Notes: generated by a model from the letters alone, not told the origin. A stretch of DNA of 64,000 bases from an uncultured bacterium (GCA_963695095.1 CAVOFT010000001.1:864001-928000); one strand, 5' to 3'; positions 40,856 to 63,046 are shown, counted from the first letter of the stretch. A program made the numbers and translations.

Positions 40856-40903
40856 GGAGAGACCTCGCCAGAACGAGGTCGCGGGAGGCGGGGAGAGGCC
40901 AGT

Positions 40904-42080: not shown

Positions 42081-42105
42081 CGCGGGCCTCCCGAGCGCCT
42101 GCGCA

Positions 42106-42937
42106 TCATTTGAGCACCCCCGGCATGGGGATCACGGAACCCATCACCACCGGCCCCACCGGCACGAAGGGCGGCACGAAGGTGGGGATGGGCCCCATGC
42201 CGAGCACGCCCGTCACCATCGTGCTCGCCTTGAAGGTCTGGAAGACCGTGCCGAAGGCCTTGGCCAGGCACTCGAAGAGCATGGCCGCGTGGGCGGCCTC
42301 GGGGTCACCCAGGTTCCCCTCCATCTGCTTGGCGAGCGCGCTGGGCGAGAGCATGCGATTCGCCGGGCGAGCTGAGCGTGACCAGTGGCACGGGGACGTT
42401 CGGCGTCGGCGGGGCCATCGGCCCCGGGAAGGCGGCGAAGGCCGGGTACATGAGCTGGCCCATGAGCCCGGTCTGCCAGGTCTGCCAGGCCGTGCCGAAA
42501 GCGTTGGCGATGGCGTTCGTGTACTTCATCTCCATCGGGGTGGCCATCGGCGAGCCGGCGAGGATGAGCGGCGCCAGCGGCGGTCCCACCACACCGCCGG
42601 GGGTGAGCATGCCCACGGGGCCGTTGATGATCACGGTCGTGATCATCGTCATCTTCATCCAGTTGTCGATGCCGCCGCAGATGCCCTTGCTGACGCCGTC
42701 GATGTAGGCCTCGAGCAGGTCGGAGATGTCCTTGGCCGCGTCGACGTGGTACTTGTTCAGGCTCACTTCGCGCAGCAGGTTGGTGGGTGCGTTGGGCAGC
42801 GCGATCTGCTCGCTGGGGGCGAAGGCGTCGTCGAACTGGTCGCTGGGCTCCTCGTAGCCCTCCTGCAATTCCTTTTGCTTGGCGGCAAAGAGGGTCTTCG
42901 TCTGCTGGGCCAGGAGGCTGGCTTGCGGCGCGGGCAT
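42106..42937 (-). CDS. Conserved-looking hypothetical Pro/Gly/Met-rich T6SS-associated protein; frameshift near 42355
   Basis: ORFs 42305..42937 and 42106..42354 join into one coherent ~277-aa product (YPAFAAFPGPMAPPTPNVP; GPIPTFVPPFVPVGPVV). It lies between PAAR and DUF2169. Confidence 0.7.
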
Positions 42938-43534: not shown

Positions 43535-46500
43535 ATGCACGAAGTGATGCAGCGCCTGGCCGTCGCCGGTCTGGCGGCCCTCGTCGTCGCGAGCCTGGCC
43601 CCGGGCCTCTGCGCCCAGCCGGAGTACCTCAGCGACCCCTCGCAGTTCATTTATCAGGCGGCGGTCGTCGATTTCGAGACCTTTCCCGACGGCAACACGG
43701 TGCCCTATTCCGACCCCAGCTTGACCGACCAGTGGAGCCAGGTGGGCTTCCTGATCGCCGACAGCTCGCCGAGCACCGGCGCCATGGCGATCAGCAACAC
43801 GTCGGCGCGATCTTCCCGCACAGCGGCACGCGCGGCCTGACCGACGGCCCCAGCAACCTGGGCGGCTTCCATCCGCTTCGACTTCGTGGACCAGCGCACG
43901 GGCCAGCCCACCGTGGTCTGGGAGACCGGCATCTGGGTGCAGAACGGCGACGCGGCCTCGACCGTGGCCTTCTACGACGGGAGCGGCGGCACGCTGGGCA
44001 GCTTCACCACCGCCGGCGCCGACGACTTCATCGGTCTGCGCGACCGCGAGGGCATCGCCGCCATCGAGATCAGCGACGGCGGCCAGTACATGGTGGACGA
44101 CCTCACCTTCTCACCCCGCTTCGCCGACGACAAGCTCTGGTCGCCGTTCAGCGCGGCCCAAGGCCTAAGCTCTTTCGTGCGCGAGTTGGAGGTCTATGAA
44201 GACCAGCTCTTCGTGGGCGGGGCATTTGCGAGCGCTGGCGGGGTAGCCGGCACAGCCCGTCTTGCTAGCTGGAACGGCGGATCCTGGAGCGGGCTGGGCA
44301 CCCAGCCCGACAACACGGTCTGGGCGATGACCGTCTGGGACGGCAAGCTCGTGGTCGGCGGCGAGTTCTCCAACTTGGGCAGCCGCGTCGCCGCCTGGAA
44401 CGGCACGGGTTGGGAGACCCTTGGCGCTGGTTTCAATGGCGTGGTCTACGATCTGCTCGTTTGGAACGACCAGCTCTACGCCTGCGGTGCATTCACGCTG
44501 TCGGGCGGCGCCGACGTGCGCTATGTAGGCCGCTGGAACGGTTCGGCCTGGGAGGGCCTGGGCACGCAGATTCCGACCGCTGTCTACGCCTTCGCAATGG
44601 CGGTGTATGAGAACCAGCTCATCGTCTGCGGCTTCCTCCCCTCGGCGCCCTTCGACCGCGACCTTGTCGCCTGGGATGGGAGCGCCTGGACGACCTTCCA
44701 GGGAGGGGGCAACGGCGAGATCGATGCCGTCTGCGTGTGGAACGGCGACCTCTATGTCGGCGGTGTTTTTTCTGAGATCGGCAATCCGCCGGTGGCTGCG
44801 CAGGGCATCGCGCGCTGGGACGGCGAGACCTGGGCACAGGTCGGCGAGAGCCTCGGCGGCAACTATGTCATGAAGCTCCAACCCTATGACGGCGCCCTGC
44901 TCGCCGTGGGTCGCTTCAGCGGTCCGACTGTCGATCCCTTCGGCGAGATCAACGGCATCGGGCTCTGGGATGGCGTCAGCGGTGCCTGGCGCCCCCTGGG
45001 CAGTGGATCCCCTTCAACCAAGACATCTGGGATGCACAGGCGTATCAGGGCGCCCTCTACGTGGGCGGCGAGTTCAACACCATCGGCGGCCAGTCCGACG
45101 TCGGCTACCTGGCGCGCTGGGACGGCCCGGTGGAGTTCCCGGTGGTGACGCTGCCCACTGCCGTGGCGCCGGTCGGACAGCCCTTCACCTTCCGAGTGAA
45201 CGCCAGCGACAACTACGATGTGCAGTCGGTCACCCTGCACTACCGCCGCGGCGGCCAGCCCAACTTCAGCGCGGTCGACTTGGCGCCGGAGGCCGGGCGG
45301 GACGGCACCTACAGCGCCCAGCTCGCGCCCGCGCTGATCACCACGAGCGGCCTGGAGTACTTCGTGGAAGTCTCCGACGGCGCCTTCACCACCGTGGCGC
45401 CGGCCACGGCGCCGGTGATTCCGGGCTTCCTCGCCACCAGCTTCAGCGCCAGCCTGGCCGCGCCGACGGCGAACGAGTACGTGCTGTTCGGCTTTCCCTT
45501 CCGGCCGACGGGCAGCCCGGCCCAGGTCATCGAGGACGACCTGGGCGCCTACAATCCCGCCAGCTGGCGCCTGGGCCGCTATCAGCCGACAGGCACCAGC
45601 ACCGGCAGCTATCGCGAGTACCCGAACGTCGGCGCCTACCCGAATCCCGACGGCAGCTTCCAGCCCGGAAACGGCTACTGGCTGATCCAGAAGGAGCCCA
45701 AGGTCGTGGATGCCGGCGCGACGGCCACGAGCACCGCCGCCGGCGTCACGCTGCGCCTGACCTCGGGCTGGTCGATGATCGCGACGCCCTACATGTTCCC
45801 GGTGCGCTGGAGCGACGTCGGCCTCGATCCCGGCATCGAGAACCAGCTCTGGGGCCTGGTGGCCGGCAGCGCGCCCGACTACGCCTATCAACTGCGGACG
45901 CGCATGGAGCCCTGGCAGGCCTACTGGGTGCACAACGCCTCGGCTTCGCCCCAGTTCATCAACATCCCCGGCATCGACGCGACGGCCTTCGCGGCCCGGC
46001 CGGCGCCGGCGCCCGACCACGTCTGGGCCCTGCGCCTGCGGCCCGCGGGCAGCGAGGGCCACGGCGCCCTCGCCGCGGTGAACGCGCAGGGTAGCAGCGG
46101 GCTGGACGCCTTCGATGCGCACTGCCCGCCGGCGATGCCCGGCGCTCCCTCGCTCTCCTTCCTGCTGGAAGCGGACGGCGAGGAGCAGGAGCTGGCGATC
46201 GACACGCGCGGCGACTTCACGGCCACGGGCGGCGCCCTGTGGACGCTGGGCGTCAGCGGCCGCGCGGGCGGCGAGCATCTCGTGCTGGCCGTCGAGGGCC
46301 TCGAGTCGCTGCCGCCGGAGCTGGCGGCTCAGCTCATCGGCCCCAGCGGTCTGCGCGTGGACCTGCGCGCCACGCCCGCGCCGCGCCTGCCGCTCGATGC
46401 GGCGGGCCGCACGCGGGTAACCCTGGCCGTGGGTACGGCGGCCTTCGTCGAGCAGGCCGCCGACGATCAGGCGGCGGCCGCGACGGGCACCCACCTGGCG

Positions 46501-46761
46501 GCCAACTACCCGAATCCCTTCAATCCCAAGACCACCCTGCCCTTCAGCCTGGCGGCGCCGGCCGCGGTGCGCCTGGCGATCTACGACGTCACGGGTCGCC
46601 TGCAGCGCACCCTGGTGGATGGGCTGCTGCCGGCCGGCGAGCACTGGGTGAACTGGGACGGCCGCGACGAGGCGGGGAGCGAGCTGGCCAGCGGCGTCTA
46701 CTTCAGCCGCTTCGAGGCGGGCGCCGTGAGCGAGGTGCGCAAGCTGCTCTTGCTGCGATAG
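43535..46761 (+). CDS. Large secreted protein: beta-sandwich, W(N/D)G-repeat beta-propeller, Ig-like domains and C-terminal FlgD-Ig sorting domain; frameshifts near 43800-43870 and 45030
   Basis: Signal peptide in 43535..43840. Repeats 'L.VGG.F......(A)RW(N/D)G..W..LG' in 43886..45148, continuing in 45061..46761. Ends NYPNPFNPKT...IYDVTGR...WDGRD..G..LASGVYF...KLLLLR. Confidence 0.8.
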
Positions 46762-47912: not shown

Positions 47913-50900
47913 TCAGGGACTCAAGCGCGCCGGGCAGCGGTACTCGAAGAAGCCCGCGGCGAAGGGGTGCACCGCGCTCGCCGCCCGCAGCTCGTAGGGC
48001 ACGGCCACGCGGCAGTCGCCGCTCTTCTCCAGCGTCCAGGTCACCTTGAGCCGGCGCCCGTCGATGGACTCCAGGCGCGCGCGCTCGAGCAGGCGAAAGA
48101 GGCCCCAGGGACTGCCCTCGGCGCTCAGCGGCTCGGGCCCGGCCTTGGTGCAGCGCAGGGCCAGGCTGGCCTCGCGCCGCTCGCCCTCGCCGGGCCAGGT
48201 GAATTCGCGCGGCTGCGGGTGGCCCATCTCATAGAGCAGGCGGTTGTTGTCCAGGGTGAGGCGCGTGGCCTCGACCACCGGATCGCGGCCGGAGACGAGC
48301 TGCGGGCGGCCGGGCACCATCTCGAAGCGCAGGGAGAGCTTGTCGCCGCCGTCGCGGAAGAAGATGTCCCGATAGCGCTGGGCGCGCTCCAGGGCCGCCT
48401 TGGCCTCGGCGCCCAGCTCGAGCCCGAGGCCGTGCCGCAGCACCGGCTCCCCGTTGGCGCCGAGATAGGCGGCCAGCTCCTGGCGCGCGAACTCGGCGAG
48501 GACGCCGCGGGGGCCGAAGAAGTTGCTGAAGTCATCGAGGCTGGCATCCGGCCCGCTGGAGTAGAAGGGATAGCGGCGGTCCAGGGTCTGGCTGAAGGGA
48601 TCGAAGACCCGCGCCTTCCAGGCGGCATCGAGGTGTCGCGCGCTCTCGGCCAGGCAGGCGCGCCAGGCGCCCTGCGCCGGCCGCTTGAGGAACTCGCCCA
48701 GCGCATCGTTGCAGGCGGGCAGGCCGCCGCCCCCGGCGCGGTTGACCTGGCGCCGCGCCCGCTGCATCGACTTGCCCACGGCGCTCTCGTCCTGGCCGGG
48801 CGCGAGGGCCTGCATCAGCTCGCGCGTGAAGTCCGCGGCGGCGGCGGCGGGGTTCTCGGCGTCGCGCAGGTGCTCCAGCTCGCCGCTGAGCGCCTTGTAG
48901 TCGGCCAGGAACAGCTCGACCGGCTTGCCCTCCTCGTCGCCGTCCTTGGTCTTCTCGAAGAGCGCGTGCAGGGAGGCCCAGGCCGTCTCGATGCGGTCCA
49001 GGCCGCCGGCCTGGCCGAGCTGATCGTCGCGCAGGCGGAGCTGCTCGGCGGCGCTCTCGAGCAGGCGGCGGAAGGGCGAGTCCTTGTCGCCCAGGCGGTT
49101 GAGCTGGGCGGAGGCGGCCTGGAGACCGCTCGCGCGCGCCACGTCCACGCCGCGGAAGTAGGCGACCCAGGCGGCGATGTAGTCGTCCACGTAGAGCTTG
49201 AGCAGCAGGGACTGGATCGAGGCCTGCCGCTCGCCGAAGGCCTCGCGCAGCAGCCAGTCGTCGGCGAGCTGCTGGTCGCTGGCCTGGATGCGGCCCTTGA
49301 TCACCTCGCGCCAGCCGGCCAGCGTGAAGGCGCCGGGCACCTCGTCGCTGCCGCCGGTGGCCAGCGCGCCGCATCCGCGCCGAAGAGCTCGGCGCCGCCC
49401 GGCAGGCTGCTCGCGCGGAAGGCGGGCACCTTCTCGTTCGCGGCGTCGACCATCAGCGCGTAGAAGCGGTCCGGCTGCCAGAAGTCGCGGATGTAGGCGT
49501 TGGCCCGCTCGACGAGGCGGCGATCGGCGCCGGGCAGCGTGGCGCTGCGCGCCTCCAGGTCGCCGGGGTGCTGCCAGGCGTAGCGCAGGTGGTCGGCGAT
49601 CAGCTCGCGCGTGCGCTCGGAGGCCATCCCGTCGCCGCCCCAGAGCGCCTGCAGGGTGGGCACGAGCAGATCGGGATCGCCCTGCTCCGGATCGATGAGC
49701 ATGCGGTAGGCGCGATAGCCATTGTCGAAGGCCCGGTAGTCCTCGCTGCTCGTGGGGTACTCGCCCTGCAGGCGGGCCACGAAGCGCGCCGCGCTGGGCG
49801 CGAGCAGGGCCGCGTAGAGGCGGTCCACGTAGATCTCGCGGGCGCGGGTGTTGATCACCTGGCCGCGATAGAGGCCGAGGCCGAGGGCCGGCGAGCGGCG
49901 GCGGTCGCTGCCGTCCAGGCGCTGGAGCTGCTCGCGCAGGGGCTCCAGTCGGCCCAGCGCCTGCTCGAGCTCGGAGGCGTTCGGGCTCGCGCTGACGGCG
50001 AGCTGGCGCGCGCCTTCGGCCAGGGCCGTCGTGCGCGAGATGAGGGCGAGGTTGCGCCCGAAGGAGACGATCAGGAGCAGGCCGACGAGGCCCAGCAGCG
50101 CGAAGCCCAGGCTGCGCAGGCCGAGCCGGCGCACGCGCAGGCGCGACGCCAGACGCCGCGTGGGGCGAGCGAGCCGGAAGTCCGGCACCAGCACGCGCAG
50201 GAAGAAGGACCTGATGAAGTAGGCGCGACTCCGCGGCAGGGCGCCGCTGGCGTGGGGCGCGCTCGCCTGGCCGCCCAGGCCCACGACGCGGCTCACCTCG
50301 TTCAACACGGTCTGGCGGCTGGGTCCGGCCTGTGCCGCGCTGGTCAGGTAGAAGCCGCGCAGCAGGGGCCGCCGCCCGTAGGGGTCCGGCGCGCAGAGGG
50401 CGTCGACGAAAGTGCCCAGCCGCTCGCGCAGGGCGCGCAGCTCCAGCGGGAACAGGTAGATGTCGCTGCGCCGCTCGAGGCTGGCCTCGCGCGTGAGGCG
50501 GCCGACGCGCCGCTCGCAGAGCAGCGCGTAGAGCGCGTCGAACTCGGCGATGACCTGGGCGCTGGTCGCCGTGCTCTCGCGGCCGCCGAGGGGCAGCGTG
50601 GCGCCCCAGACCTGGCCCGCGCCGGCGGCGTCGAGGTCCTCGAAGCTGGCGGCGAAGCCATGCAGCTGGTCTGCCCGCGTCAGCACCAGGTAGACGGGGC
50701 ACTCGATCTGCAGCTGCTCGCCCAGCGCGTCCAGGCGCCGGCGCAGGACGGCGGCCTGGGCCGCGAGTTCGGCCGGCGGCAGCTCACGCAGGGCGTCCAC
50801 GGCGAGGGTGACGAGCACGCCCTGCAGCGCCACCTCGGGCCGCACCTTGCGCAGCGAGTCCAGGAAGGCGCGCCAGTCGCGCTCGGCGACCGCCGGCGCC

Positions 50901-51448
50901 GCCTCGAGGAAGTCCGCCTTCGCCTCGAGCAGCAGGCCCTGGCTGGTGAACCACCAGTCGCAGTAGCGCGAAGCGCCGATGCCCTTGAGCTCGCCCGCCT
51001 GCTGGCCGGGGAGCTGCAGGCCCGACTGCTGGATCAGCGCGCTGCGGCCCGTCCCCAGGCGCCCCAGGACCAGGTACCAGGGCAGGGCGCGCAGGGCGCG
51101 CTTGCCGCCGCCGGCCATCGGCGTGCGCTTGAGCGCTTCGAGGGCTTCGAGCAACTCGCGCCGCGCCGACTCGCGGCGTTGCTTCTCCTCGTCAGAGGCC
51201 GCGGCGGCGTGGCTGTCCGCCTCGATCACCAGGGACTTCTCGAGCTGGGCGCCGGCCTTGCGCTTGCGCAGCAGGCTGATCACCACCTGCGCGATGATGA
51301 ACAGCAGGGCGATGCCGATGAGGATGAACAGCTGCTGCCGCCGCGTGAGGCCGAAGCGATTGGCGAGCGTGTAGAGCGCCAGCAGCAAGAGCACGCAGAG
51401 AAAGCCGATCAGGACGCGCGGGCTCTTCAGCATGGAGAGGAATTGCAT
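47913..51448 (-). CDS. tssM: T6SS membrane complex subunit TssM/IcmF; frameshift near 49360
   Basis: Two N-terminal TMs, LPWYLVLG, CDWWF, PVYLVLT..D...GF, QVWG.TL, LLRGFYLTSA.Q, YF...FF..V, third TM, VPGAFT..GW, RYPF, DF..FFGP.G, WG.FRL. Confidence 0.92.
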
Positions 51449-51496: not shown

Positions 51497-52195
51497 CTAG
51501 TAGCCGGGCAGCGGCAGAAGGCGCAGCGCCGCGCCGACGCTGTGTTCGATCCAGAAGTAGAAGACGATGAACAGCACCAGCAGCACGCCGCCCGCGATGG
51601 CGGCCGCCCGCCAGGGCGCGGCGCCGGCGGTGGCGACGCTCGCCAGGCCGTCGCGCCGGAGGGCGCTGGGCGATAGCGCCGGCTCGGCCCCCGCGCGCGC
51701 ATAGCCCAGCTCGCCGGCCAGGGTGTCGCGCAAGCGCGCCAGCTCGGCCAGGCCGGTGACGCGGTACTGACCCTCGAAGCCCAGCGCCAGGCAGAGGTGG
51801 TAGATCTCGAGCAGCTCGCGCCGGCCCTCGCCCTGCCGGCGCAGCTCGGCCAGGTTCGTGAAGAAGCGCGTGCCCGCCGTGCGCTCGCCGTAGTAGTGGA
51901 GCTGCAGGGGGCGGTCCCGCCAGCGCTCGCGGTGCTGCCACTGCGAGTTGAGGATGGTCTCGTCGATGAAGGCCACGAGCGGGTACTTGGCGGCCTCCAG
52001 CACGTCGCGCGGAATGCGCGCGGCGATGCCCTCGCTCTCGATGCGGCCCAGGTAGTTCTGGATGCGATCGCGCAGGGCCGCCTCGTCGCCGTACTGCGAG
52101 CTCTGGCGCAGGGAGAGGATGAGGGCGAAGAGCTCGCCCGCCAGCTCCCTGGGGCTGCTGGCCTGCTGCTGGTCGCCGGGGGCGTTCGCGTGCAT
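51497..52195 (-). CDS. tssL: T6SS DotU/TssL (no OmpA domain)
   Basis: AKY.LVAFIDE.IL, W...PLQ..Y.GE..AG..FF, LEIY.LCL.LGFEG.Y, C-terminal TM. Confidence 0.95.
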   Translation of the reverse strand: MHANAPGDQQQASSPRELAGELFALILSLRQSSQYGDEAALRDRIQNYLGRIESEGIAARIPRDVLEAAKYPLVAFIDETILNSQWQHRERWRDRPLQLHYYGERTAGTRFFTNLAELRRQGEGRRELLEIYHLCLALGFEGQYRVTGLAELARLRDTLAGELGYARAGAEPALSPSALRRDGLASVATAGAAPWRAAAIAGGVLLVLFIVFYFWIEHSVGAALRLLPLPGY

Positions 52196-52207
52196 GGGCG
52201 CTCTCGC

Positions 52208-53560
52208 TTACTTGGTGACGATGAGTTCGTAGCTCATGGCCCTGAGGTCCGGGCTGCCGAGATAGATGGCCACCGACTTGGCCTTGCGCAGGGTCTCCCA
52301 GATGTCGCCCTGGGTGAGCAAGCGGAAGTAGCTGCGCCCGGCCTTGATGGGGAAATCGCGCGGCGGCTGGCTGACGAACTCCAGCCGGATGCCCGGCGTC
52401 GCGGTCTGGACGAGGAAGTCCACGTTGTCCGGCGTGCCGACGATGAGCTGCAGAGGCACGTCCTCGCGCAGGCGCGCCTCGCTGAGTTCGCCGATCAGGG
52501 CGAGGTACCACTGGCAGCTCGCGGCGAAGTGGCGGTCGTCCTTGATCTCCCCGATGAGCAGGCTCTCGTCGCGGGCCTTGAGCGGAATGCCGGTGAAACG
52601 CGTGGGCATCACCTTGCCCATCAGATCGAGGATGAGATCGCTGAGCCCGCGGAAGCAGCCGCCGAGGTCCTCGTGCTGGTAGGCGGGTACTTCGCGCGGA
52701 TGGCGGTCGACGCCGAAGGTGCAGAGCCCGCCGGCCAGGCCGGCCAGGCAGTCGTAGAGCGCGAGCGGGTGGCTCTGGGGCACGCGCTGGAAGTGGAGCA
52801 GGCGGGGCAGGTAGCTGTTCACGGTGTGCAGGAGCCAGAAGATGCCCACGTCCGAACTCGTGAAGTCCACGGACTCCGCGCTGCGGTGGCGGGTCTGTGC
52901 GGCGAGCTGACTGCTCTTGGCGTCCAGCACCTCGGCGATGCTGCGCAGGTAGCCGAGCAGGGGGCCGGCGGCCTCGAGGCTCGTGGCCGGTGGGGCGTAA
53001 TCGGCGCGGATCACCGGCCGGCCGGCCTCGCCGCGCTCGAGCACGGCGAGGGGCAGGGTGACCAGGCCGTCCGTGTTCTCGCCGCCGAAGACGAGGCGCA
53101 GGTTGCGCCGCGCGATGAGCAACTCGGTTTCCTGGCCGGGATCGTTGAGGTCGGGCAGGCGCCGCTCCTCGGCGACGAAGGGGCTGGCCACGCGGCTCTC
53201 GCTGCGGGGACTGCTCACCAGCGGCAGTCCCGGGCGCTCGGCCGGCAGCGCCAGGAAGACGGGCAGCTCGGGGCGCTCGGCGCCGAAGGCCTCGGCGAAG
53301 CTGCGCGGATCGGGGAGCGGGTCCACCTCGGGCGCGCGCAGCAGGCTGCCGTCGGGCAGCACCGCCTCGAGGGCGCGCAGGGCGAAGCGGCCGTTGATCA
53401 GCGCTTCCTCTTCGATCTGCAGGCGGCGCAGTCCCCAGGCGAAGGGCTGGGCCTCGGCCACCCAGCGCAGCTCGCCGTCCGCGTAGCGATCCCGCTGCTG
53501 GAAGTGCTGGGGGCCGAGAAACATGCCCTCGTTCCAGACGATGCGGTTGTACTTGCTCAC
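52208..53560 (-). CDS. tssK: T6SS baseplate subunit
   Basis: VWNEGMFL.PQHFQQ.DRY, WG...L.I, LPDG, Y.PP, HP..LY, Y.H.DL...F, PP..P......YF.L. Confidence 0.96.
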   Translation of the reverse strand: MSKYNRIVWNEGMFLGPQHFQQRDRYADGELRWVAEAQPFAWGLRRLQIEEEALINGRFALRALEAVLPDGSLLRAPEVDPLPDPRSFAEAFGAERPELPVFLALPAERPGLPLVSSPRSESRVASPFVAEERRLPDLNDPGQETELLIARRNLRLVFGGENTDGLVTLPLAVLERGEAGRPVIRADYAPPATSLEAAGPLLGYLRSIAEVLDAKSSQLAAQTRHRSAESVDFTSSDVGIFWLLHTVNSYLPRLLHFQRVPQSHPLALYDCLAGLAGGLCTFGVDRHPREVPAYQHEDLGGCFRGLSDLILDLMGKVMPTRFTGIPLKARDESLLIGEIKDDRHFAASCQWYLALIGELSEARLREDVPLQLIVGTPDNVDFLVQTATPGIRLEFVSQPPRDFPIKAGRSYFRLLTQGDIWETLRKAKSVAIYLGSPDLRAMSYELIVTK

Positions 53561-53577: not shown

Positions 53578-54057
53578 CTAGTCGGTCACGGTCATGCAGT
53601 TCTTGCCCAGGGCGATGCCGATGCGGGCGCCGCCCTTCTCCAGCTCGATGCTGCGCTTCCAGCAGTTGCTCGACTGCTGGCAGAAGTCGGCGACGATGCC
53701 GATGGCGGTGGTCCCCTTCGCGCGGGGCAGCTTGAGCGAGAGCGTCTCGCCGGGGCGCAGGGTCTGCTCGATCACCTTCAGCTTGTCGTCGCCCAGGACC
53801 TTGAGATCGTTGTCGAAAAGCGCCGAGAACTCGGCGGCGCGGAATTGCTCCGCGGCGGCGAGGCTGTAGATGTAGAGCTTGACCGGGTGCGCGCCGCTCT
53901 CATCGCAGGTGTTGAGCTGCTCGGAGGCTTCGATGCGGATGCGGTCCACGGTGCCGCAGGAGCGCAAGAGGAGCTGGCGCGGGCAACAGCCGACGAGCAG
54001 GAGCATCAGGATCAGGGCAGCGCCGACGAGCAGGCGGCGGGCGGGTGGGCGGAGCAT
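53578..54057 (-). CDS. tssJ: T6SS outer-membrane lipoprotein
   Basis: Lipobox LVGC, A...LN......HPV....Y.L.....F..A.F..L, L.PGE, IGIVADF, W. First gene of tssJKLM. Confidence 0.88.
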   Translation of the reverse strand: MLRPPARRLLVGAALILMLLLVGCCPRQLLLRSCGTVDRIRIEASEQLNTCDESGAHPVKLYIYSLAAAEQFRAAEFSALFDNDLKVLGDDKLKVIEQTLRPGETLSLKLPRAKGTTAIGIVADFCQQSSNCWKRSIELEKGGARIGIALGKNCMTVTD

Positions 54058-54132: not shown

Positions 54133-54160
54133 AGTATAGCAGCGCGCCGGGGAGGGTCAA
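54133..54160 (-). promoter_or_regulatory. Putative promoter of tssJKLM
   Basis: Minus strand TTGACC(54160-55)-16 bp-TATACT(54138-33), with an extended -10 TGn. Confidence 0.6.
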
Positions 54161-54235: not shown

Positions 54236-54264
54236 TTGACACCTCACAGGTCGGTTGCTAGACT
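54236..54264 (+). promoter_or_regulatory. Putative promoter of the FHA/kinase operon, divergent from tssJ
   Basis: TTGACA(54236-41)-17 bp-TAGACT(54259-64). Confidence 0.7.
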
Positions 54265-54311: not shown

Positions 54312-55265
54312 ATGTTCTTCAAGAAGAAGCAGGACAAGATCAGGCGCTGCGCGGAGGGCCACATCCTCGACCCCTCCTGGACGCACTGCCCTTACTGCCA
54401 AGACCAGGCGGAGCCCGCCGCGGCCGTGCCGCCGGCCGCTCCGCCCCCACCGAGCTACAGCTCGGGCCCGGGCTTCGCGCCGCCGCCGGCTCACTCCCCG
54501 CCGCCGGCCCACGCCCAGCCCCCCGTCTATGCGCCGCCTCCCGGCCCGCCGCCGGGCGCGGCGCCTCCCGCGCAGCCGGGCGGGGGACTGGACGAGAACC
54601 TCGACAGGACCGTGGTGAATCCGCGGGTGGCGCCCCCGGCGGCGCCGCCGCCCGCGCCGGCGCCGCCCCCTCCCGAGCTGCTGGTGACAGCGCAGGCCGC
54701 CACCGACGAGGGCGAGGAGGATCCGGACATCACCCGGGTGCAGCGTCCAGGGTCCCCGGCCGCCGCGATCCCGCCGGCCGCCGCAGCCCCGCCGCCCGCC
54801 GCTTCGCCGCCACCGGCGCCTCCGACCGCCCCCGTGGCGGCCGCGGCGCCCCCCGCAGCGGCAGCGCCGCCGCCGTCCGCCCCGCTGCGCGAGCCCGCCG
54901 CCCTGCCGCCGATGGGCGCGGACGATGTCACCCGCATCCTGCCGCGCGCGAGCGGACCGCGCAGCCTCGTCGCCTGGCTGGTGGTGGTCGAGGGCGATTA
55001 TCGCGGTCGGGACTTTCGCTTGAGTGGCCCGCGTCTGCGTGTCGGCATCGCGCCCGACTGCGAGATCAGCCTGCCCGAGGAGTCCTACCTCTCACGGCAC
55101 CACGCGGAGCTGGAGCTGGTCGACGGTGACTACGTCCTGCGCGACCTCGCCTCGCGCAACGGCACCTTCGTCAACGGCGAGCGCGTGGAGAGCAGCACCC
55201 TGCGCGACGGCGACGCCGTCCGCCTGGGGCTGACGCACATGATCTATCGCACGCTGCTGATCTGA
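54312..55265 (+). CDS. FHA-domain protein with N-terminal zinc ribbon and Pro-rich linker
   Basis: RCAEGH......CPYC, long Pro/Ala linker. C-terminal FHA (WLVV.EG...G..F.L, SRHHA, DL.SRNGTFVNG, L.DGD.V.LG). Confidence 0.9.
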   Translation: MFFKKKQDKIRRCAEGHILDPSWTHCPYCQDQAEPAAAVPPAAPPPPSYSSGPGFAPPPAHSPPPAHAQPPVYAPPPGPPPGAAPPAQPGGGLDENLDRTVVNPRVAPPAAPPPAPAPPPPELLVTAQAATDEGEEDPDITRVQRPGSPAAAIPPAAAAPPPAASPPPAPPTAPVAAAAPPAAAAPPPSAPLREPAALPPMGADDVTRILPRASGPRSLVAWLVVVEGDYRGRDFRLSGPRLRVGIAPDCEISLPEESYLSRHHAELELVDGDYVLRDLASRNGTFVNGERVESSTLRDGDAVRLGLTHMIYRTLLI

Positions 55266-55267
55266 CG

Positions 55268-57112
55268 ATGAAACTCCCCTCCCTGCCGCGGCGCCGCAGA
55301 GCCGGTTCGTCGGGCCGCGGGCGGGGCGCCCTGCGCCTGGAGATCGCGACGGCAGCGGGGGAGCGGCTCCTCCTGCTGGCCCCGGGCGAGAGCGCCCGGG
55401 TGGGTCGCGCCGCCAACTGCGAGCTGCGCCTGGACGAGAGCTCGGTCAGCCGCCTGCACGCGCGCCTGGAGCCGGCGGGGGACGGCTGGCGCCTCGTAGA
55501 TGCGGGCAGCGCCAACGGCTGCTTCGTGGACGGCGAGCCGGTGACGAGCCGCGAGCTGGCCGACGGTGACGCGCTCGGCTTCGGCCGCGCGGCGCCGCTC
55601 ACCGTGCGCCTGCTCGCGCCTGCGCGCTCCGTCCAGGAGACCGTCCACGGCGCCGCCGCACCCCCGCCGCCCGCAGCTCTTTCCAGTCCGCGCCGCGGCC
55701 TCTTCGCCCGCCTGCCCGCCTGGCTCCAGTCCCTGGTGCTCTGGCGGCTGCGGCCGGCGGCGGGGCGCGGCCCCAGCCGCCTCGTGGGCCGCGAGCATCT
55801 GATCGTCGGCCGCGCCGAGAGCGCGGATCTGCGCCTGGACTCGCCGGAGGTTTCCGGGCTGCACGCGCGGCTGGAGCGAAAGGGCGGCGTGCTCCTGCTG
55901 CGGGACATGGACAGCGCCAACGGCACCCTGCACAAGGGCGAGCGGGTGCGCAAGGCGCGCCTCGTGCCGGGCGACCGGGTCAGCTTCGCCGACGCGGAGT
56001 ATCGGCTCGTCGGCAGCGCTCTGCCCTCCGCGCGCGGCTGGCTGCTCCTCGGCAGCCTGGCGGCCCTGCTCCTGCTCGTGGCCAGCGGCCGCCTGCTCCT
56101 CGAGAGCCGGCAGCAGGGCCAGCGCCTGTGGACGCGGGCCATGTACGAGGAGCAGGTGGAGAGCAGCCTGCGCGCGGCCGTGGCGGCTCTGGATCGCGAG
56201 CCGCCCACGCCGGCCCTCGCCATCGCCCAGTTCGACATCGCCATCCGTTCGCTGGTGGCCGCCGATCGCCTGGAGGATCCCGCCGACGAGGCGGCCCTGG
56301 CCGCGGCCCTGCGCGCGGCGGGGGGGCGCGTGGGCCGCAGCCTGGGCGGGCGGGACATCGTCCTCATCTATCGCAACCTGCACCGGCCACCGCCGCCGCC
56401 GCCGCCGGTTCCCAGCCCCGATGAGCTGGAGACGCGGGCGCCCTCGCCCTTCGTGCTCGTGGACGAGCTGACCCTGATCCTCGCCGAGTTCGGCATCGAT
56501 CCCCAGGAGAAGCCCATCCCGCCCGAGTTCCTGGCCGAGGTGCAGCGCTTCGTCACGCACTGGACGGGCCCCGAGCGGGCCTTCACCGAGCGCTCCCTGG
56601 CCCGCGCGCGGCCCCACCTGGCGATGATCCGCCGCCAGCTGCGCGCCGCCCAGCTGCCGGAGGTCTTCTGCTATCTGCCCTTCATCGAGAGCGGCTACCG
56701 CAACACGGCAGTGAGCACGGCCGGCGCCGGCGGCATGTGGCAGTTCATGCCCAAGACGGCCCGCCAGTACGGCCTGCGCGTGGACGAGCTGGTCGACGAG
56801 CGCACGGATCCCCAGAAGCTGACCGTGGCTGCCTGCCGCTATCTCAACGACCTGCTCAGCATGTTCGGCGCGAACTCCTTCATGTGCGCGCTCGCCTCCT
56901 ACAACAAGGGCGAGTACGGCATGCTCAACTGCCTGCGCGGCGTCAGCTGGCGCTCGAGCTGGAAGTTCTGGGACATCGTCGAAAAGGGCGACGGCTGCCT
57001 GAAGCAGGAGACCGTCGAGTACGTGCCGCGCTTCCTGGCGGCGGCGATCGTGGCCCGCCGCCCGGAGGCCTTCGGCATCGAGGTGCCCGCCGCGGACGAG
57101 GCGCTGCCGTGA
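55268..57112 (+). CDS. FHA-FHA-TM-lytic transglycosylase (MltD-like SLT) fusion
   Basis: Two FHA domains (VGR...VS..HA...SANG) and a TM. Then IESGY...A.S.AGA.G.WQFMP.TA..YGL..VDER.DP, A.ASYN.GE, ET..YVP. Confidence 0.9.
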   Translation: MKLPSLPRRRRAGSSGRGRGALRLEIATAAGERLLLLAPGESARVGRAANCELRLDESSVSRLHARLEPAGDGWRLVDAGSANGCFVDGEPVTSRELADGDALGFGRAAPLTVRLLAPARSVQETVHGAAAPPPPAALSSPRRGLFARLPAWLQSLVLWRLRPAAGRGPSRLVGREHLIVGRAESADLRLDSPEVSGLHARLERKGGVLLLRDMDSANGTLHKGERVRKARLVPGDRVSFADAEYRLVGSALPSARGWLLLGSLAALLLLVASGRLLLESRQQGQRLWTRAMYEEQVESSLRAAVAALDREPPTPALAIAQFDIAIRSLVAADRLEDPADEAALAAALRAAGGRVGRSLGGRDIVLIYRNLHRPPPPPPPVPSPDELETRAPSPFVLVDELTLILAEFGIDPQEKPIPPEFLAEVQRFVTHWTGPERAFTERSLARARPHLAMIRRQLRAAQLPEVFCYLPFIESGYRNTAVSTAGAGGMWQFMPKTARQYGLRVDELVDERTDPQKLTVAACRYLNDLLSMFGANSFMCALASYNKGEYGMLNCLRGVSWRSSWKFWDIVEKGDGCLKQETVEYVPRFLAAAIVARRPEAFGIEVPAADEALP

Positions 57113-58449
57113 GGGCGCTCCGCACGGGCCCTGGGCTGCCGGCGCTGGCCCTGCTCGCGGCGCTGGGGGCGGCCGTCCTCGCGGCGCGTCCGGCGCTCGC
57201 GGTGGAAGGTCAGCTCGAGCCGGGCATCGCCCTGCCGGGGGGCGAGGGCCTGCTGCCCATCGCCCTGCGCGACGCGGCCGGGGCGCCCTTCCTTGCCCGC
57301 GCCGACGAGCTGGCGCTGAGGGTGGGCGGGCGGCAGCTCGAATCCCTGTCGATGGGGGCCTTCGCCCCCGCACCGGGCGGCGAGCCCTGCCATCTGTCCC
57401 TGCTGCTGGACCTGCCCGCCCTGGATGAGGCGGCCCGCCGGGCCTGGGCCGAGCGCCTGGCGCGCTTCCTGGCGCCTGCGCCCGGGGTGACGCGGGCTCT
57501 GTCGGTGGCGGCGGCGGGGCAGGCGACCTGGGTGAAGCCGGGCGGGTCCGCGCCCACGGCGGCGGCCCTCGCCGAGCGCCTGGACGCCCAGGCGACGGCG
57601 GGCAAGCCCGAGCGGCTCTGGGACTCCCTGCTCGATGCGCTGGCGGCCCTGTCCAGCGCGGGCGGCCTGCCCCCGCGCCGGGTGCTCATCCTGGTCAGCG
57701 ACGGCCTCGAGGCCACGCCGAGCCGGCATCCGCTGGCCTCCTGCCTGGAGGCGGCCCAGCTCGCCCGGGTGCCGGTCTATGTGCTGGCCCTGCCGGTGGC
57801 GACGGCGGGCGGCGCGGCCGGTGGCCGCCGCCTCGCCGAGCTGGCCGCGGGCAGCGGCGGGCGCTTGCTGGTCGCCGAATCGGGCCGCGTCGAGGAGAAC
57901 TGGCAGGCGCTCATCGGCGGCGTGTCGGCCGTGCAGGCCCTGCGCTTCCGCGCGCCGGTCTCGCCGCGGCCGGAACCCCTGCAGCTGGAGATCGGCGGCG
58001 CCGGGGGCGGCCAGCTCACGGGCAGCCTGGCCCCGCGCACGCGCGTTGCGGCCGGGGCGGACTCGCGGCTCCTCTTTCTCCTCGCGCTGCCCCTGCTCGC
58101 AGTGGCAGGCGCAGTAATCGTTTGGCATCGCCGGCGTGGGGTGGGTAGACTGAGCTTCGTGGAGAACGGCATCCGCCGCGAGCGGGTGCTGCCGCATCGA
58201 GGCTTGAGCATCGGGTCCGATCCGGGAAGCGATCTGCTGGTGGCCCATCCGCACGTTTCCCGGCAGCACGCCGTGCTGCGGCTGCAGCGAGGGCAGGTTC
58301 TGCTCACGGACCTGCGCAGCACCAACGGCACGGCCGTCAACGGGCGGCCGGTGCGCAGCCAGGTGCTCCGTGACGGCGACCGGATCCTCCTGGGCGGCAG
58401 CGTGGAGATCGTCTTCGCGCGGCGCCGGGGACGGACGAGCACTCAGTGA
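57109..58449 (+). CDS. Signal peptide-VWA-like-TM-FHA membrane protein
   Basis: Signal peptide, 'LWDSL..AL', 'RVLILVSDG', 'VPVYVL', 'L.ELA..SGG'. TM, then FHA (VSRQHA, DL.STNGT.VNG). Confidence 0.8.
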   Translation: MRALRTGPGLPALALLAALGAAVLAARPALAVEGQLEPGIALPGGEGLLPIALRDAAGAPFLARADELALRVGGRQLESLSMGAFAPAPGGEPCHLSLLLDLPALDEAARRAWAERLARFLAPAPGVTRALSVAAAGQATWVKPGGSAPTAAALAERLDAQATAGKPERLWDSLLDALAALSSAGGLPPRRVLILVSDGLEATPSRHPLASCLEAAQLARVPVYVLALPVATAGGAAGGRRLAELAAGSGGRLLVAESGRVEENWQALIGGVSAVQALRFRAPVSPRPEPLQLEIGGAGGGQLTGSLAPRTRVAAGADSRLLFLLALPLLAVAGAVIVWHRRRGVGRLSFVENGIRRERVLPHRGLSIGSDPGSDLLVAHPHVSRQHAVLRLQRGQVLLTDLRSTNGTAVNGRPVRSQVLRDGDRILLGGSVEIVFARRRGRTSTQ

Positions 58450-59228
58450 AGGGGCCAGAGGTGGAGCGCAGCATTCCCACGGCCATCGGCGGCATCCAGC
58501 TCGTCCAGGCCCTGCTATCGGACATCGGCTGCCGCCGGAAGAAGAACGAGGACGCGCTCGGCTTCTACGTCAGCGAGACGCCGCCCGCCACCCAGCTCGC
58601 GGTGGTCTGCGACGGCGTCGGCGGCAACGCGGCGGGCGAAGTGGCCAGCCAGCTCGCGCTGGAGACCCTCGAGGCCAGCTTCTTCGGGGCCGGCAATCCG
58701 GACGACGTCGGCGGCGCCCTGCGCCGCGCCGTCGAGGCGGCCAACGCCGCCGTCCTGCACAAGGCGGGCCTGGACCCGCGCCTGGCGCACATGGCGACCA
58801 CCTGCACGGCGGCCGCCCTGCGCGGCGAGGAGCTGCGCATCGGCCACATCGGCGACTGCCGCGCCTATCGCATCGAGGGCGCCGTCATCCAGCAGCTCAC
58901 GCGCGACCACTCGGTGGCCGAGGAGTACGCGCAGCGGGGCGAGGCGCTGCCGGCCGACAAGCAGGGCCTGGCCAACGTGCTCACCCGTTGCCTGGGCCTG
59001 GAGCCGCGCATCGACGTGGACCTCAGCGAGCCGCTGCCCTTCCGGGAGGGGAACATCCTCGTGCTGTGCTCCGACGGCCTGACCAAGATGGTCACCCCCC
59101 AGGAGATTCTCTATCAGGCCTCCATGCAGGGCCCCGAGGACGCCTGCCAGCACTTGGTGGCATTGGCCCGCGAGCGGGGCGGCCCCGACAACATCAGCGT
59201 GCAGGTGATCCGCTACCGCCGCCACTAG
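58446..59228 (+). CDS. PP2C-family Ser/Thr phosphatase (PppA/Stp1-like)
   Basis: SDIG..R.KNED, VCDGVGG, HIGD.R.Y, LTRDHS, LCSDGL, GGPDNIS. Confidence 0.95.
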   Translation: MKGPEVERSIPTAIGGIQLVQALLSDIGCRRKKNEDALGFYVSETPPATQLAVVCDGVGGNAAGEVASQLALETLEASFFGAGNPDDVGGALRRAVEAANAAVLHKAGLDPRLAHMATTCTAAALRGEELRIGHIGDCRAYRIEGAVIQQLTRDHSVAEEYAQRGEALPADKQGLANVLTRCLGLEPRIDVDLSEPLPFREGNILVLCSDGLTKMVTPQEILYQASMQGPEDACQHLVALARERGGPDNISVQVIRYRRH

Positions 59229-59240
59229 GCAGGAGAAGCG

Positions 59241-61743
59241 ATGGCCACGTCCTTCCATGGCTACGAGATCCGGGAGAAGATCGGCGGCGGCGGCATGTCC
59301 ACCGTCTACAAAGGCGTGCACAAGACGCTGGGCTACCCCGTCGCCATCAAGATCCTGCATCCGGGCCTGGCGGGGGACGCCAGCTTCATCGCGCGCTTCG
59401 AGCGGGAGGCCAAGGCCGCCTCGGCGCTGCGCAGCAACAACATCGCCTCGGTGAACGACTTCGGCCAGGAGGACGAGGTCTACTTCATCGTGATGGAGTA
59501 CATCGACGGCATGGATCTGGCCAAGGTCTTCGAGGCCCTGCAGGGCGGGCGCGGCAAGCCCAAGGCCGTGCCGGTGGAGATGACCCTGGCGCTGCTCGAA
59601 GAGGTGGCCTACGGGCTCAAGCTGGCCCACGAGCACGGCATCATCCACCGTGACATCAAGCCCAGCAACATCCTGCTCAACAGCCGCGGCGAGGTGAAGA
59701 TCGCCGACTTCGGCCTGGCCCGCAACACGGGCAACCTGCCCAGCCCCAGCTACAGGGATCTCACCAGCCCCGGCACCGTGGTGGGCACGCCCTCCTACAT
59801 GTCGCCCGAGCAGGCGGCCGGCCAGGACGACCTCGACAGCCGCACGGACATCTTCTCCCTGGGCGTGATGGCCTATCAGTTCCTCACGGGAGAGAAGCCC
59901 TTCCAGGCCGACAGCCCGACGGAAGTCCAGTTCAAGATCATCAACGAGCAGCCCAAGCCGCTGGACCGCAAGCGCGTGCCCCTGCTCACGCCGGCCATCG
60001 AGGCGATGGTGACCAAGCTGCTCGCCAAGAAGCCCGACCACCGCTACCAGAACATGGACCAGGTGCTCAGGGCCATCAAGGAAGCCGAGGAGAGCATCGA
60101 CAGCTCGGGCAGCCTGAGCAAGTACCGCCGCGACTACCTGAGCAGCTTCGCCAAGGATCCGGTGGGCTTCAGCGAAGAGCTGCGCGTCAAGAGCATCAAG
60201 AGCCACCTCAAGCTCGGCTTCCACTTCAAGAACCAGGGCCGCGCCAACATCGACGACGCCGTGCGCGAGTTCAGCTACGTGCTCTCGCTGGACCCCGACA
60301 ACACGCAAGCGGCCAGCGCCATGTCCGAGATCTACACCGAGGACGAGGGCAGCGGCGCGGGGGCTCCGGCCGGCGTGGATGCCACGGCGGTGATGCCCGC
60401 CGGCACTGACGTGACCGCGGTGCTGCCGGGCGAAGGCAAGACGGCCCCGAGCCGGCCGGCCGCCGCCACGCCGCCGAGCGTCCCCCCGCCCGGCAAGCCA
60501 GCCGCGGCGCCGCCCAAACCCTCGCCGCCGAAACCCCAGGCGCCCAAGCCCGCCGCGGCGAAGCCCGTGGCCGCTCGCACGGAGCGCGCCGGCATTCCCC
60601 GGCGCTGGCTCCTGATCGGGGGCGGGGTGCTGGTCGTGGCCCTGCTGGCCTTCCTCGTGCCCAGGCTGTTCAAGGGCGGCGGCGAGACGCCGGCCCCGCC
60701 GCCGGCAGCGCCCGCCGCGCGAGCGGCGACGCTCTTCGTGCGCAGCACGCCGCCGGACGCCGCCGTCTGGCTGCGCCGGGCGGGCGAGGCCGAGTTCCGC
60801 GACACGGGCCGCCGCAGCGACTGCCTGCTCACCGGCCTCGCGGCCGGCGCCTACGAAGTGCGGCTCGTCAAGGAGGGCTTCACGGAGGCGACCCTGCCCT
60901 TCAGCGTGGCGGCCGGCGACAGCGGCCGCGTGGCGACGAGCCTGGCCGCGGCCCTGCCCGCGGCGGCGGAGACCCCGACGCCGCCGGCGGCCGTCGCCAC
61001 CGGCGACGCCTTCCTCAGCGTGGGCAGCAACCCGGCCGGCGCCACCGTGTCCATGCGCCAGCGCGGCGAGTCGCGCTACCGCGATGTGGGCACCACGCCC
61101 TACCGCAGCCATGCGCTGGAGCCCGGGCGCTGGGAGATCAAGGTCGCGCTGGCCGGGCATCAGGAGGAGAGCACGGGCCGCACGCTCTCGGCGGGGCGCA
61201 CCGACGAGATCTTCTTCCCGCTCAAGAAGCAGGCGGCGGCCGGCGGCAACGGCTACCTGGACCTGATCGTCTCGCCCTACGGCGACATCTACGTGGACGG
61301 CCAGCGCGTGGCCGAGGAGGCGCGGCGCGCGGTGCTGCCGGTGACGAGCGGCCGCAAGCACGCGGTCTCGGTGCGGCACCCGCTGACCTACGGGCGCATC
61401 GACCTGCCCGAGGTGGAAGTGGCGGCCGGCGACACCGTGGCGCTCGGCCGGCAGGCCTTCGCCTTCGGCTCCCTGGCCGTGGCCGCGACTCCGGCCGCCG
61501 ACGTCTACATCGACGGCGTGCGCGTGGGGCAGCAGACGCCCTTCCGCCTGGACCCGATGGCGGCCGGCGAGCATCGCGTCAGCGTGCTCAAGTCAGGGAT
61601 TCAAGATCCTGCGGGCCGAGTTGCTGACGGACGCGGGCAGCCGCGAGCTCAGCGCCGTGGGCAGCGGCAGTCCCCCGCAATATGCCATTCGCCTGCGCGA
61701 AGGCGAGAAGTTGCGCCTGAAGTTCACCTTGGCGGCGCAGTGA
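59241..61743 (+). CDS. Membrane Ser/Thr kinase with TPR segment and periplasmic PEGA domains (PpkA/PknB-like); frameshift near 61600
   Basis: IGGGGMSTVY, VAIK, HRDIKPSN, DFG, GTPSYMSPEQ, TM, then 'S.P..A.V' PEGA repeats. The likely true C-terminus (...LKFTLAAQ*) lies in the shifted frame ending at 61743; the track ORF ends at 61766. Confidence 0.93.
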
Positions 61744-61827
61744 GCCACCCGGGTTTTCGCTTGTGATCGCCTGCGGCATGGCGGACAATCCGGCCGCAGT
61801 GGGCCCCTTCACATGGGAGGCGAGTCG

Positions 61828-62421
61828 ATGCTGTCCTTCTTCCTGGATCGGCGAGTTCTGCGCCCGACGGCCGCGGCCGTCCTCGTCGCCTTCGCCCTGC
61901 TCGTGCTGCCCTTGCCGGCCTGGCAGGGCACTGCCCGCGCCGATGCCCTCGCCGATCTGAGCGCGGCCCGCAATCACTACGAGTTCGCCGAGTTCGATCA
62001 GGGCGTGGCGATCCTGCAGCGGCTCGTCACGGGCAAGCAGCTCAGCGGCGAGTCGCTGCGCGACGCCTACATCCTGCTGGCGCGCTGCCAGGTGGGCAAG
62101 GGCAACGAGCCGCAGGCCCTGGACGCCTTCTGCTCGGCCATCTGCCTGGACAAGACCTGGCGCCCGGATGCGGTCTTCTTCCCCCAGGACGAGATCGAGA
62201 CCTTCCACAAGGCGCTCGAGGCCTGCAAGTGCGCCGAGCAGGCGGCCGCGCCGGCCCCTGCGAAGAAGGACGAGGAGGGGGGCGGCATGCCCAAGTGGGT
62301 GTACTACGCGGGCGGCGCGGTGGTGCTGGGCCTGGTGGCGGTGCTGGCCCTGGGCGGCGGCGGCGACGATGAAAATCCTGGCCCCAGCCTGCCCGGCTTC
62401 CCCGATCCGCCGAGCGACTAG
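61828..62421 (+). CDS. Exported TPR-like protein with C-terminal hydrophobic/Gly-rich segment
   Basis: Signal peptide, helical repeat, then KWVYYAGGAVVLGLVAVLALGGGG...LPGFPDPP. Confidence 0.7.
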   Translation: MLSFFLDRRVLRPTAAAVLVAFALLVLPLPAWQGTARADALADLSAARNHYEFAEFDQGVAILQRLVTGKQLSGESLRDAYILLARCQVGKGNEPQALDAFCSAICLDKTWRPDAVFFPQDEIETFHKALEACKCAEQAAAPAPAKKDEEGGGMPKWVYYAGGAVVLGLVAVLALGGGGDDENPGPSLPGFPDPPSD

Positions 62422-62458: not shown

Positions 62459-63046
62459 ATGCAACCCGAAGAGGTGATGGAGCGCCTGCGCGCGACCGGA
62501 GCCCTGCTCGAGGGCCACTTCCAGCTCAGCAGCGGCCGGCACAGCGACCGCTACGTGCAGTGCGCGCGCCTGCTGGCGGTGACCCCGGTCGCGGCCGAAG
62601 TGGGCGCAGCCCTCTCCGCCCGCCTGCCCGCGGAGCTCGACCTCATCGTCAGCCCGGCCCTGGGCGGCCTCATCATCGGCCACGAGGTGGCCCGCGCCCG
62701 GCGCCTGCCCTTCTACTTCACCGAGCGCGAAGCGGGGGCGATGGTCTTTCGTCGGGGCTTCGCCGTGCCGCCGGGCGCGCGCTGCGCGGTGGTGGAGGAC
62801 GTGGTCACCTCGGGCGGCAGCCTGCTCGAGGCCGCCGCCGCCCTGCGCGCGGCGGGCGGCGTGCTGGTGGCCGCCGCCGCGATCGTGGACCGCAGCGGCG
62901 CCGCGCCGCCGGACTTCGGCGCGCCCTTCGTCTCGCTGCTCAAGCTCGAGGTGAAGAACTGGGAGCCGGCCGACTGCCCGCTCTGCGCGGCGGGGTCCAC
63001 GGCGGTCAAGCCCGGCAGCCGGCACCTCGGACTGGGGAAGGGCTAG
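62459..63046 (+). CDS. pyrE: Orotate phosphoribosyltransferase
   Basis: GALLEGHF.LSSG.HS..Y.QCA, SPALGG, VVEDVVTSGGS, CPLC......KPGSR. Confidence 0.96.
   Translation: MQPEEVMERLRATGALLEGHFQLSSGRHSDRYVQCARLLAVTPVAAEVGAALSARLPAELDLIVSPALGGLIIGHEVARARRLPFYFTEREAGAMVFRRGFAVPPGARCAVVEDVVTSGGSLLEAAAALRAAGGVLVAAAAIVDRSGAAPPDFGAPFVSLLKLEVKNWEPADCPLCAAGSTAVKPGSRHLGLGKG

Follow-up and report, generated by a model that had tools for sequence, protein, structure and literature searches.

The window analysed here, a stretch of 64,000 nucleotides from an uncultured bacterium (GCA_963695095.1 CAVOFT010000001.1:864001-928000; the genome is coded G000, and positions are counted from the start of the window), carries a TssJLM-type type VI secretion system (T6SS) as well as, at the end of its island, an operon of six genes, g1 to g6 (54312-62421), with a kinase, a phosphatase, three FHA proteins of which one is a lytic transglycosylase, and a small TPR-like protein. 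Our results suggest that these six genes form a conserved module accessory to this T6SS in Krumholzibacteriota-like bacteria, namely a lineage-specific threonine-phosphorylation pathway which would couple the kinase to a local opening of peptidoglycan, and we give this reading, which is drawn from sequence comparison, a probability of roughly 55%. That the module is dedicated to the T6SS is very probable. The phylum label (Krumholzibacteriota; Candidatus Krumholzibacteriia/-ota) rests on the source names of close homologs.

Linkage of the module to the type VI secretion system

An argument for this comes from the distribution of the g2 family, which contains the transglycosylase, over 208 Krumholzibacteriota genomes. 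At a threshold of E <= 1e-45 the family is found in 17 genomes, each of which also has TssK. TssK itself is found in 21, of which four, namely G006, G103, G123 and G165, do not have g2. In 14 genomes, all within the g2 set, the periplasmic part of g3 is present as well, and the three g2 carriers in which it was not found are assemblies of 210-610 contigs. As for g6, strong matches (E <= 1e-26) occur in 13 genomes, all TssK-positive, together with four weak matches (E 1e-9 to 1e-14) in TssK-negative genomes. The original prediction had tied the threonine-phosphorylation genes to the T6SS, and would have been undermined by an operon commonly occurring apart from it; in fact neither g2 nor g3 is carried by any of the 187 TssK-negative genomes.

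Moreover, the linkage is also positional. In nine other genomes g2 lies within about 10 kb of tssK with conserved gene order, and by tblastn of the window proteins against relatives' loci, g1-g6 adjoin tssJKLM in G104, G105, G110, G112, G116, G037 (where the contig ends within g1) and L016, a metagenome-assembled genome labelled Gemmatimonadota. Partial modules are seen in G166 (g2-g6), G094 (g1-g4) and G131 (g2-g4), and altogether the gene order beside tssJ is conserved across 7 genera. The distant T6SS of G103 and G123 (TssK 31% identical) has none of the module. As a separate observation, two kinase paralogs occur in the modules of some relatives, in tandem in G104 (L116) and G105 (L118), and with the second copy upstream of g1 in G110 (L120).

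A related architecture with a single FHA domain, FHA-transmembrane-SLT, is found in Fibrobacterota. Among 251 sampled genomes, searched with a query from the locus L021 at E <= 1e-40, this family has 90 carriers and TssK has 106; 88 genomes have both (one of which, G403, is an unpublished genome), 2 have the family without TssK, 18 have TssK without the family, and 143 have neither. Thus the co-occurrence with the T6SS is strict in Krumholzibacteriota and near-strict in Fibrobacterota. In four T6SS clusters of Fibrobacterota, a kinase gene and the FHA-transmembrane-SLT gene are located between tssK/L, vgrG and hcp. In a profile search over 1.84 billion representatives, 13 of the best 150 matches cover the double-FHA profile almost completely as a single stretch, and many shorter forms start at the second FHA domain. 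The search for related loci drew on the SLT motif, so that most of its 80 loci are generic transglycosylases and the informative ones are L016, L020-L022, L024 and L053.

The operon and its six proteins

All six genes named in the original prediction were recovered on the + strand, divergent from tssJKLM and tightly packed:

54312-55265, + strand: g1, soluble protein with a Zn-ribbon-like N-terminus, a Pro/Ala-rich linker and a C-terminal FHA domain (63.6 bits)
55268-57112, + strand: g2, two cytoplasmic FHA domains, transmembrane helix 259-277, periplasmic helical linker and MltD-type SLT lytic transglycosylase domain
57109-58449, + strand: g3, signal peptide, periplasmic beta-sandwich and VWA-fold domain (predicted), transmembrane helix 321-339 and cytoplasmic C-terminal FHA domain
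58446-59228, + strand: g4, PP2C Ser/Thr phosphatase (PP2C_2, 53.5 bits; Stp1/IreP-like at 201.5 bits, below the cut-off of 230)
59241-61766, + strand: g5, Hanks-type Ser/Thr kinase, cytoplasmic helical region, Pro-rich linker, transmembrane helix 456-474 and periplasmic PEGA array
61813-62421, + strand: g6, signal peptide with an AxA site, small periplasmic domain resembling TPR proteins, transmembrane helix 163-181 near the C-terminus and LPGFPDPP tail

In g2, the SLT domain reaches 72.3 bits, well above its curated cut-off of 21.3, the FHA domains are matched in two stretches with 113.7 bits in total, and the periplasmic helical linker between membrane and enzyme is strongly conserved. The catalytic glutamate E474, in an IES motif, is invariant in 19/19 aligned family members, and the motif aligns with that of the nearest solved relative, the MltD-like transglycosylase 8rhe (E 1.9e-20). 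We also considered g2 as a secreted peptidoglycan-degrading effector, but rejected this in view of its N-in/C-out transmembrane helix with cytoplasmic FHA domains; nor does the gene lie beside vgrG/PAAR genes.

Altogether the operon encodes four FHA domains on three proteins, two of which are membrane-anchored. Both domains of g2 have the GR, S-x-x-H and N-G motifs of FHA domains invariant in 19/19 sequences (G46 R47 S61 H64 N83 G84 in the first, G181 R182 S196 H199 N218 G219 in the second). The FHA domains of g1 and g3 retain S-x-x-H and N-G, while the G-R of GarA aligns to G-I in g1, variable across 7 homologs, and to G-S in g3, where the family has Ser/Thr. Because g1 and g3 are without the GR arginine, a complete canonical phosphothreonine-binding motif is confined, within the operon, to the two FHA domains that the transglycosylase carries.

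The kinase g5 is clearly recognized (Pkinase, 168.8 bits; PEGA, 69 bits over 3 stretches), with invariant catalytic motifs, invariant activation-loop threonines T175 and T183, and a conserved cytoplasmic helical region. It had been described as kinase-TPR-transmembrane-PEGA, of which the kinase, the membrane helix and the PEGA array hold, while the TPR part comes down to one weak NCBIfam match (E 0.013). Likewise, g6 had been taken as an exported TPR protein. It is not simply exported, as it bears a C-terminal transmembrane helix and a tail, and both the AxA signal-peptide site and the LPGFPDPP tail are conserved. The TPR likeness of its helical domain of ~100 residues is weak: there is no Pfam match and the best Foldseek E value is 0.02 (none <= 0.001), although the top hits are all TPR proteins and the Atlas neighbours, at 0.90-0.97, bear TPR in their name or annotation.

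For g3, no Pfam VWA match was found and TIGR03436 gave 19.4 bits against a cut-off of 81. Its AlphaFold model (pLDDT 82.7), however, matches VWA structures by Foldseek, namely ITIH1 (6fpy, E 2.8e-9), 4fx5 (E 1.8e-8) and an ArnB paralog (5a8j, E 6.3e-8), so the periplasmic part is predicted to have the VWA fold. The DxSxS motif of the metal ion-dependent adhesion site is absent at the first strand, which reads LLLDLPALD in the alignment inspected, with the position judged by eye. In g1 the N-terminal pattern MFFKKK..C-x3-H..C-x2-C is kept in 5/7 aligned homologs, and the linker (residues 35-215) consists of 33% Pro and 25% Ala. Complex prediction of the periplasmic parts of g2, g3 and g5 with g6 gave 0.41 against 0.37 with chain 1 replaced, which is no answer and is used neither for nor against any contact.

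The overlapping or near-abutting stops and starts that had been noted before are borne out by the junctions: g1 and g2 are 2 nucleotides apart, g2/g3 and g3/g4 overlap by the 4 nucleotides GTGA, and g4 and g5 are separated by 12 nucleotides. In the 254-bp spacer between tssJ and g1, promoter-like pairs point both ways:

54133-54160, - strand: sigma-70-like promoter match TTGACC-16-TATACT, facing tssJ (consensus match only)
54236-54264, + strand: sigma-70-like promoter match TTGACA-17-TAGACT with TG before the -10 element, facing g1 (consensus match only)

The scan gave 3 sites in 10 kb against 0.1 expected from shuffles. These two matches agree with the promoter back-to-back with tssJ in the original prediction, but the layout itself is a minority one: in 9 loci the operon and tssJ point the same way, and in 3 (G000, L016 and G006) they diverge, so that a back-to-back promoter is not what is conserved. 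One more promoter-like match (TTGGCA-18-TAGACT) is found within g3 at 58122-58151. It precedes the PP2C gene, the one kept alone in congeners without a T6SS, by about 300 bp.

A possible mechanism

From sequence we infer all of the binding and phosphorylation steps set out below, as well as the part of the transglycosylase in T6SS assembly. The membrane kinase g5, with its periplasmic PEGA array, would autophosphorylate and phosphorylate membrane-proximal targets, and the phosphatase g4 would reverse this phosphorylation. It would be chiefly the pair of canonical FHA domains in g2 that reads the phosphothreonine marks, so that the MltD-type transglycosylase is kept at the site of the active kinase or of TssL/TssM, where it would make a local opening in the peptidoglycan to let the TssJLM membrane complex be inserted. 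As for the remaining proteins, g3, with its predicted periplasmic VWA domain and cytoplasmic FHA domain, and g6, with its periplasmic TPR-like domain, may supply periplasmic inputs or scaffolding, while g1, combining Zn-ribbon, Pro-rich disordered linker and FHA domain, may fill the role of the soluble Fha/TagH scaffold.

Several observations weigh against this picture, or against parts of it. First, a three-way reading of phosphothreonine is doubtful, because the FHA domains of g1 and g3 are without the GarA-type arginine. Second, the census counts overstate the independence of the genomes, since these are related. Third, the module is not always whole: in G006, which belongs to the same family as G000, g1, g4 and g5 are present and g6 lies 5.8 kb off behind unrelated genes with no g2 or g3, and in G094 and G131 there is no adjacent kinase. 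These partial sets indicate that the parts are separable and that g2 is not needed by every T6SS of this type. Fourth, in Chitinivibrionales-type genomes the FHA-SLT gene stands beside a CHASE2 kinase gene and a LysM-FecR gene among housekeeping genes away from tss; such genomes with a non-adjacent FHA-SLT gene nevertheless carry a T6SS. To these are added the persistence of the PP2C gene in relatives without a T6SS, and frameshifts in the present island, which may have inactivated the system in this strain; both are taken up below with the alternatives that they concern.

Island history and alternative explanations

The TssJLM-type T6SS island is complete, running from tssA (23467) up to the six-gene operon, at which it ends. 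Its other genes are as follows:

23467-42131: tssA, tssB, tssC (split), hcp, tagJ/impE, tssE, tssF, tssG, clpV (split), vgrG, unknown open reading frames, an HNH-domain protein and DUF2169 (split)
47913-51448, - strand: tssM, read in two overlapping frames (47913-50702 and 49301-51448)
51497-52207, - strand: tssL, DotU and one transmembrane helix, without a peptidoglycan-binding extension
52208-53560, - strand: tssK (T6SS_VasE, 368 bits)
53578-54057, - strand: tssJ lipoprotein (T6SS-SciN, 86 bits)

The island (~39 kb) is flanked by pyrK/pyrD (20624-23374, with the end of pyrD at 22646) on one side and, from about 62.5 kb, by a pyrE-like phosphoribosyltransferase gene (62465-63046) on the other. 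In two genomes of the same genus, G001 (L134) and G002 (L133), which have neither TssK nor g2, the pyrD and pyrE-like genes are only 1.6-1.7 kb apart, and a diverged homolog of the g4 PP2C gene alone remains between them. The DNA of G002 aligns to window positions 20891-23374, then 58458-59213, then 62465-63030. The retained PP2C is 65% (G002) and 43% (G001) identical to g4, against 79-91% for the flanking genes, and G006 retains the g6/pyrE junction. Since the order g3-g4-g5 is conserved in the distant family f2, a loss of the island with the PP2C gene kept is more parsimonious than two flanking insertions. G000 has a second PP2C, of a type found across the phylum, with 38% identity to g4. 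Beside these, the TssK-negative genome G162 (contigs C480, C235 and C609; 87% complete, 660 contigs) holds a g4-type PP2C of 52% identity and weak g6-like matches, and is either a remnant like G002 or a genome in which the T6SS was not assembled.

Such losses lead to the alternative that survives best, though we regard it as rather unlikely: that the island is decaying in this strain and the operon is left as a remnant without function, regardless of what it does in relatives. Besides the loss of the whole island except the PP2C gene in the two congeners, five genes are read in at least two frames here, namely tssM (47913-51448), tssC (25392-26754), clpV (31541-34334), DUF2169 (41051-42131) and the 3' end of the kinase gene (~61.6 kb). 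In the last, the final ~50 codons of g5 are out of frame, and a homolog-like C-terminus is found in the +1 frame with a stop at 61741-61743. Sequencing runs with matching DNA were five, with shares <= 0.10 and none of RNA among those listed, and their contigs were used for two of the frameshift sites. Contigs of 90-95% similar relatives show one extra base at 49368 and net one base fewer at 61585-61595, and by these one-base length differences the tssM and kinase frames of the relatives are continuous at both sites, which speaks against decay. Moreover g1-g4, g6, tssK, tssF, tssG and vgrG are intact, and in a 2-contig assembly (3.64 Mb) one-base errors could be technical; the split frames may come from assembly error or from strain-specific decay.

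A second alternative concerns what g2 does. It might be mainly a peptidoglycan anchor for the membrane complex, in the role of TagL/TagN and in place of the peptidoglycan-binding extension that TssL lacks, with its FHA domains tethering it to TssL or to the kinase, instead of a cutter. TssL here is DotU and a transmembrane helix only, and no OmpA-type domain is found in the window, although the genome has 10 OmpA-domain matches; passages of a review state that loci with an 'ancestral' TssL carry a compensating peptidoglycan-binding accessory gene (PMC13584744). An anchor, however, would have no need of the catalytic glutamate that the family keeps without exception and in register with the solved MltD-like enzyme, and we hold this alternative to be improbable. 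Least probable is that the module forms a Ser/Thr signalling circuit of general use for the envelope or the cell wall, like the actinobacterial kinase-FHA control of wall synthesis, and travels with the island without serving the T6SS: the 11 Pkinase matches in the genome, the PP2C homolog retained in the congeners and the Fibrobacterota kinase and FHA-SLT pairs not adjoining tss genes would fit it, but the absence of g2 and g3 from every TssK-negative genome of the phylum, the presence of the family in only 2/145 TssK-negative Fibrobacterota sampled and the conserved order beside tssJ speak against it.

Comparison with known systems

According to passages of two papers (PMC10482370, PMC13584744), phosphothreonine and FHA domains control T6SS assembly, and the canonical pathway consists of the membrane kinase PpkA, the phosphatase PppA and Fha1/TagH, with TagQRST or RtkS as inputs and repression by TagF; in Agrobacterium and Vibrio alginolyticus, phosphothreonine on TssL recruits Fha. 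Like this TagE/TagG/TagH pathway of Pseudomonas aeruginosa H1, Serratia and Agrobacterium, the present operon has a Hanks kinase with a transmembrane helix and periplasmic domain, a PP2C phosphatase and FHA proteins beside the membrane-complex genes. Unlike it, the four FHA domains here are distributed over three proteins, two of them membrane-anchored with a periplasmic enzyme or a predicted VWA domain. The kinase also differs, since P. aeruginosa PpkA carries a VWA ectodomain and the ectodomain here is PEGA. The overall plan of PpkA, as given in one source, is kinase, transmembrane helix and periplasmic domain (PMC12607579). The departure from a canonical pathway with one Fha, as had been proposed, agrees with the finding that no TagH-type Fha was found: matches to TIGR03354, a model that joins an N-terminal FHA domain to the family's C-terminal region, reach 39-52 bits against a cut-off of 120.25, at the level of the FHA domain only. 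Also in line with the original prediction, no TagF- or TagQRST-like gene has a Pfam match among the window's open reading frames scanned; in a genome search for TagF (PF09867) there was no match, though the control likewise matched in no genome.

As for the peptidoglycan, passages of a 2026 review (PMC13584744) report that a remodeler is required for T6SS assembly, MltE in enteroaggregative Escherichia coli and TagX in Acinetobacter, where MltE is a transglycosylase with a housekeeping role, whose gene lies apart from the T6SS locus and which is brought to the membrane complex, and TagX is treated under endopeptidase machinery. The passages name these two as remodelers, mention an FHA fusion for neither of them and list no FHA-fused transglycosylase. 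The present enzyme resembles them as a wall-cleaving enzyme linked to the T6SS, here suggested by gene association, and it differs from them in being encoded in the locus, anchored in the inner membrane and fused to two FHA domains.

Two systems outside the T6SS are worth comparing. In Sulfolobus, a protein with an N-terminal zinc finger and a C-terminal FHA domain, ArnA, works with the vWA protein ArnB under control of kinases and phosphatases in the repression of the archaellum, as described in the passages available (PMC6509490). The Zn-ribbon-like N-terminus and C-terminal FHA domain of g1 resemble ArnA, and ArnB-type structures are among the fold matches of g3. ArnA and ArnB, however, are archaeal and cytoplasmic, whereas the VWA domain of g3 is predicted to be periplasmic, so that a direct contact between Zn finger and VWA domain would be topologically excluded here. 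In the mycobacterial PknB/FhaA/MviN (Rv3910) system, a membrane protein of wall metabolism, when phosphorylated, serves as docking site for an FHA domain, and the complex of the FhaA FHA domain with Rv3910 (3oun) is among the FHA fold matches. There, in contrast, the FHA domain is on a separate soluble protein, the target is no transglycosylase and no secretion system is involved.

The place and timing at which the T6SS breaches the own wall are known in few Proteobacteria only, with MltE and TagX as the known agents. If our reading is true, a phospho-switch would be tied directly to wall opening by a locus-encoded transglycosylase fused to phosphothreonine readers, and this would be, as far as the literature searches show, the first lytic transglycosylase under Ser/Thr-kinase control. 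The catalogue of T6SS accessory genes would also be extended to poorly studied phyla. Full-text searches (FHA with SLT or lytic transglycosylase; Krumholzibacteria with T6SS), at the level of listings and passages, gave no description of the module, and among the papers containing both 'forkhead-associated' and 'lytic transglycosylase' neither term stands in any title or abstract; thus the circuit is, within these searches, as undescribed as had been supposed. More tentatively, and with somewhat less than even odds, the FHA-transmembrane-SLT proteins could be a new class of post-translationally gated lytic transglycosylase, in which the phosphothreonine mark of an envelope-sensing kinase positions or activates the cutter at the insertion site of the T6SS membrane complex. 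The module might then be an ancestral assembly-licensing device of the T6SS lineages in the Fibrobacteres-Chlorobi-Bacteroidetes (FCB) group (Krumholzibacteriota, Fibrobacterota and perhaps others), replacing TagH-type scaffolding and the recruitment of a housekeeping transglycosylase.

Other features of the window

Several further features were seen in the rest of the window, whose G+C content is 72%. Downstream of vgrG, the region 36746-40909 has two large open reading frames without family match and, beside DUF2169, a 366-aa minus-strand protein with a C-terminal HNH nuclease domain, and from its sequence looks like a candidate T6SS nuclease effector region. Two proteins, at 45061-46761 and 11962-13773, end in FlgD_ig / Por_Secre_tail-like domains, a C-terminal sorting signal of the type IX secretion system kind; the former sits within the T6SS island, between DUF2169 and tssM. 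Finally, the region 4600-11900, with a G+C content of 62-67% against about 72%, contains the glycan genes Wzy-like, GT2, GT1 and GT4 behind a Wza-like exporter gene and rmlC; this could be a polysaccharide cluster that was acquired.

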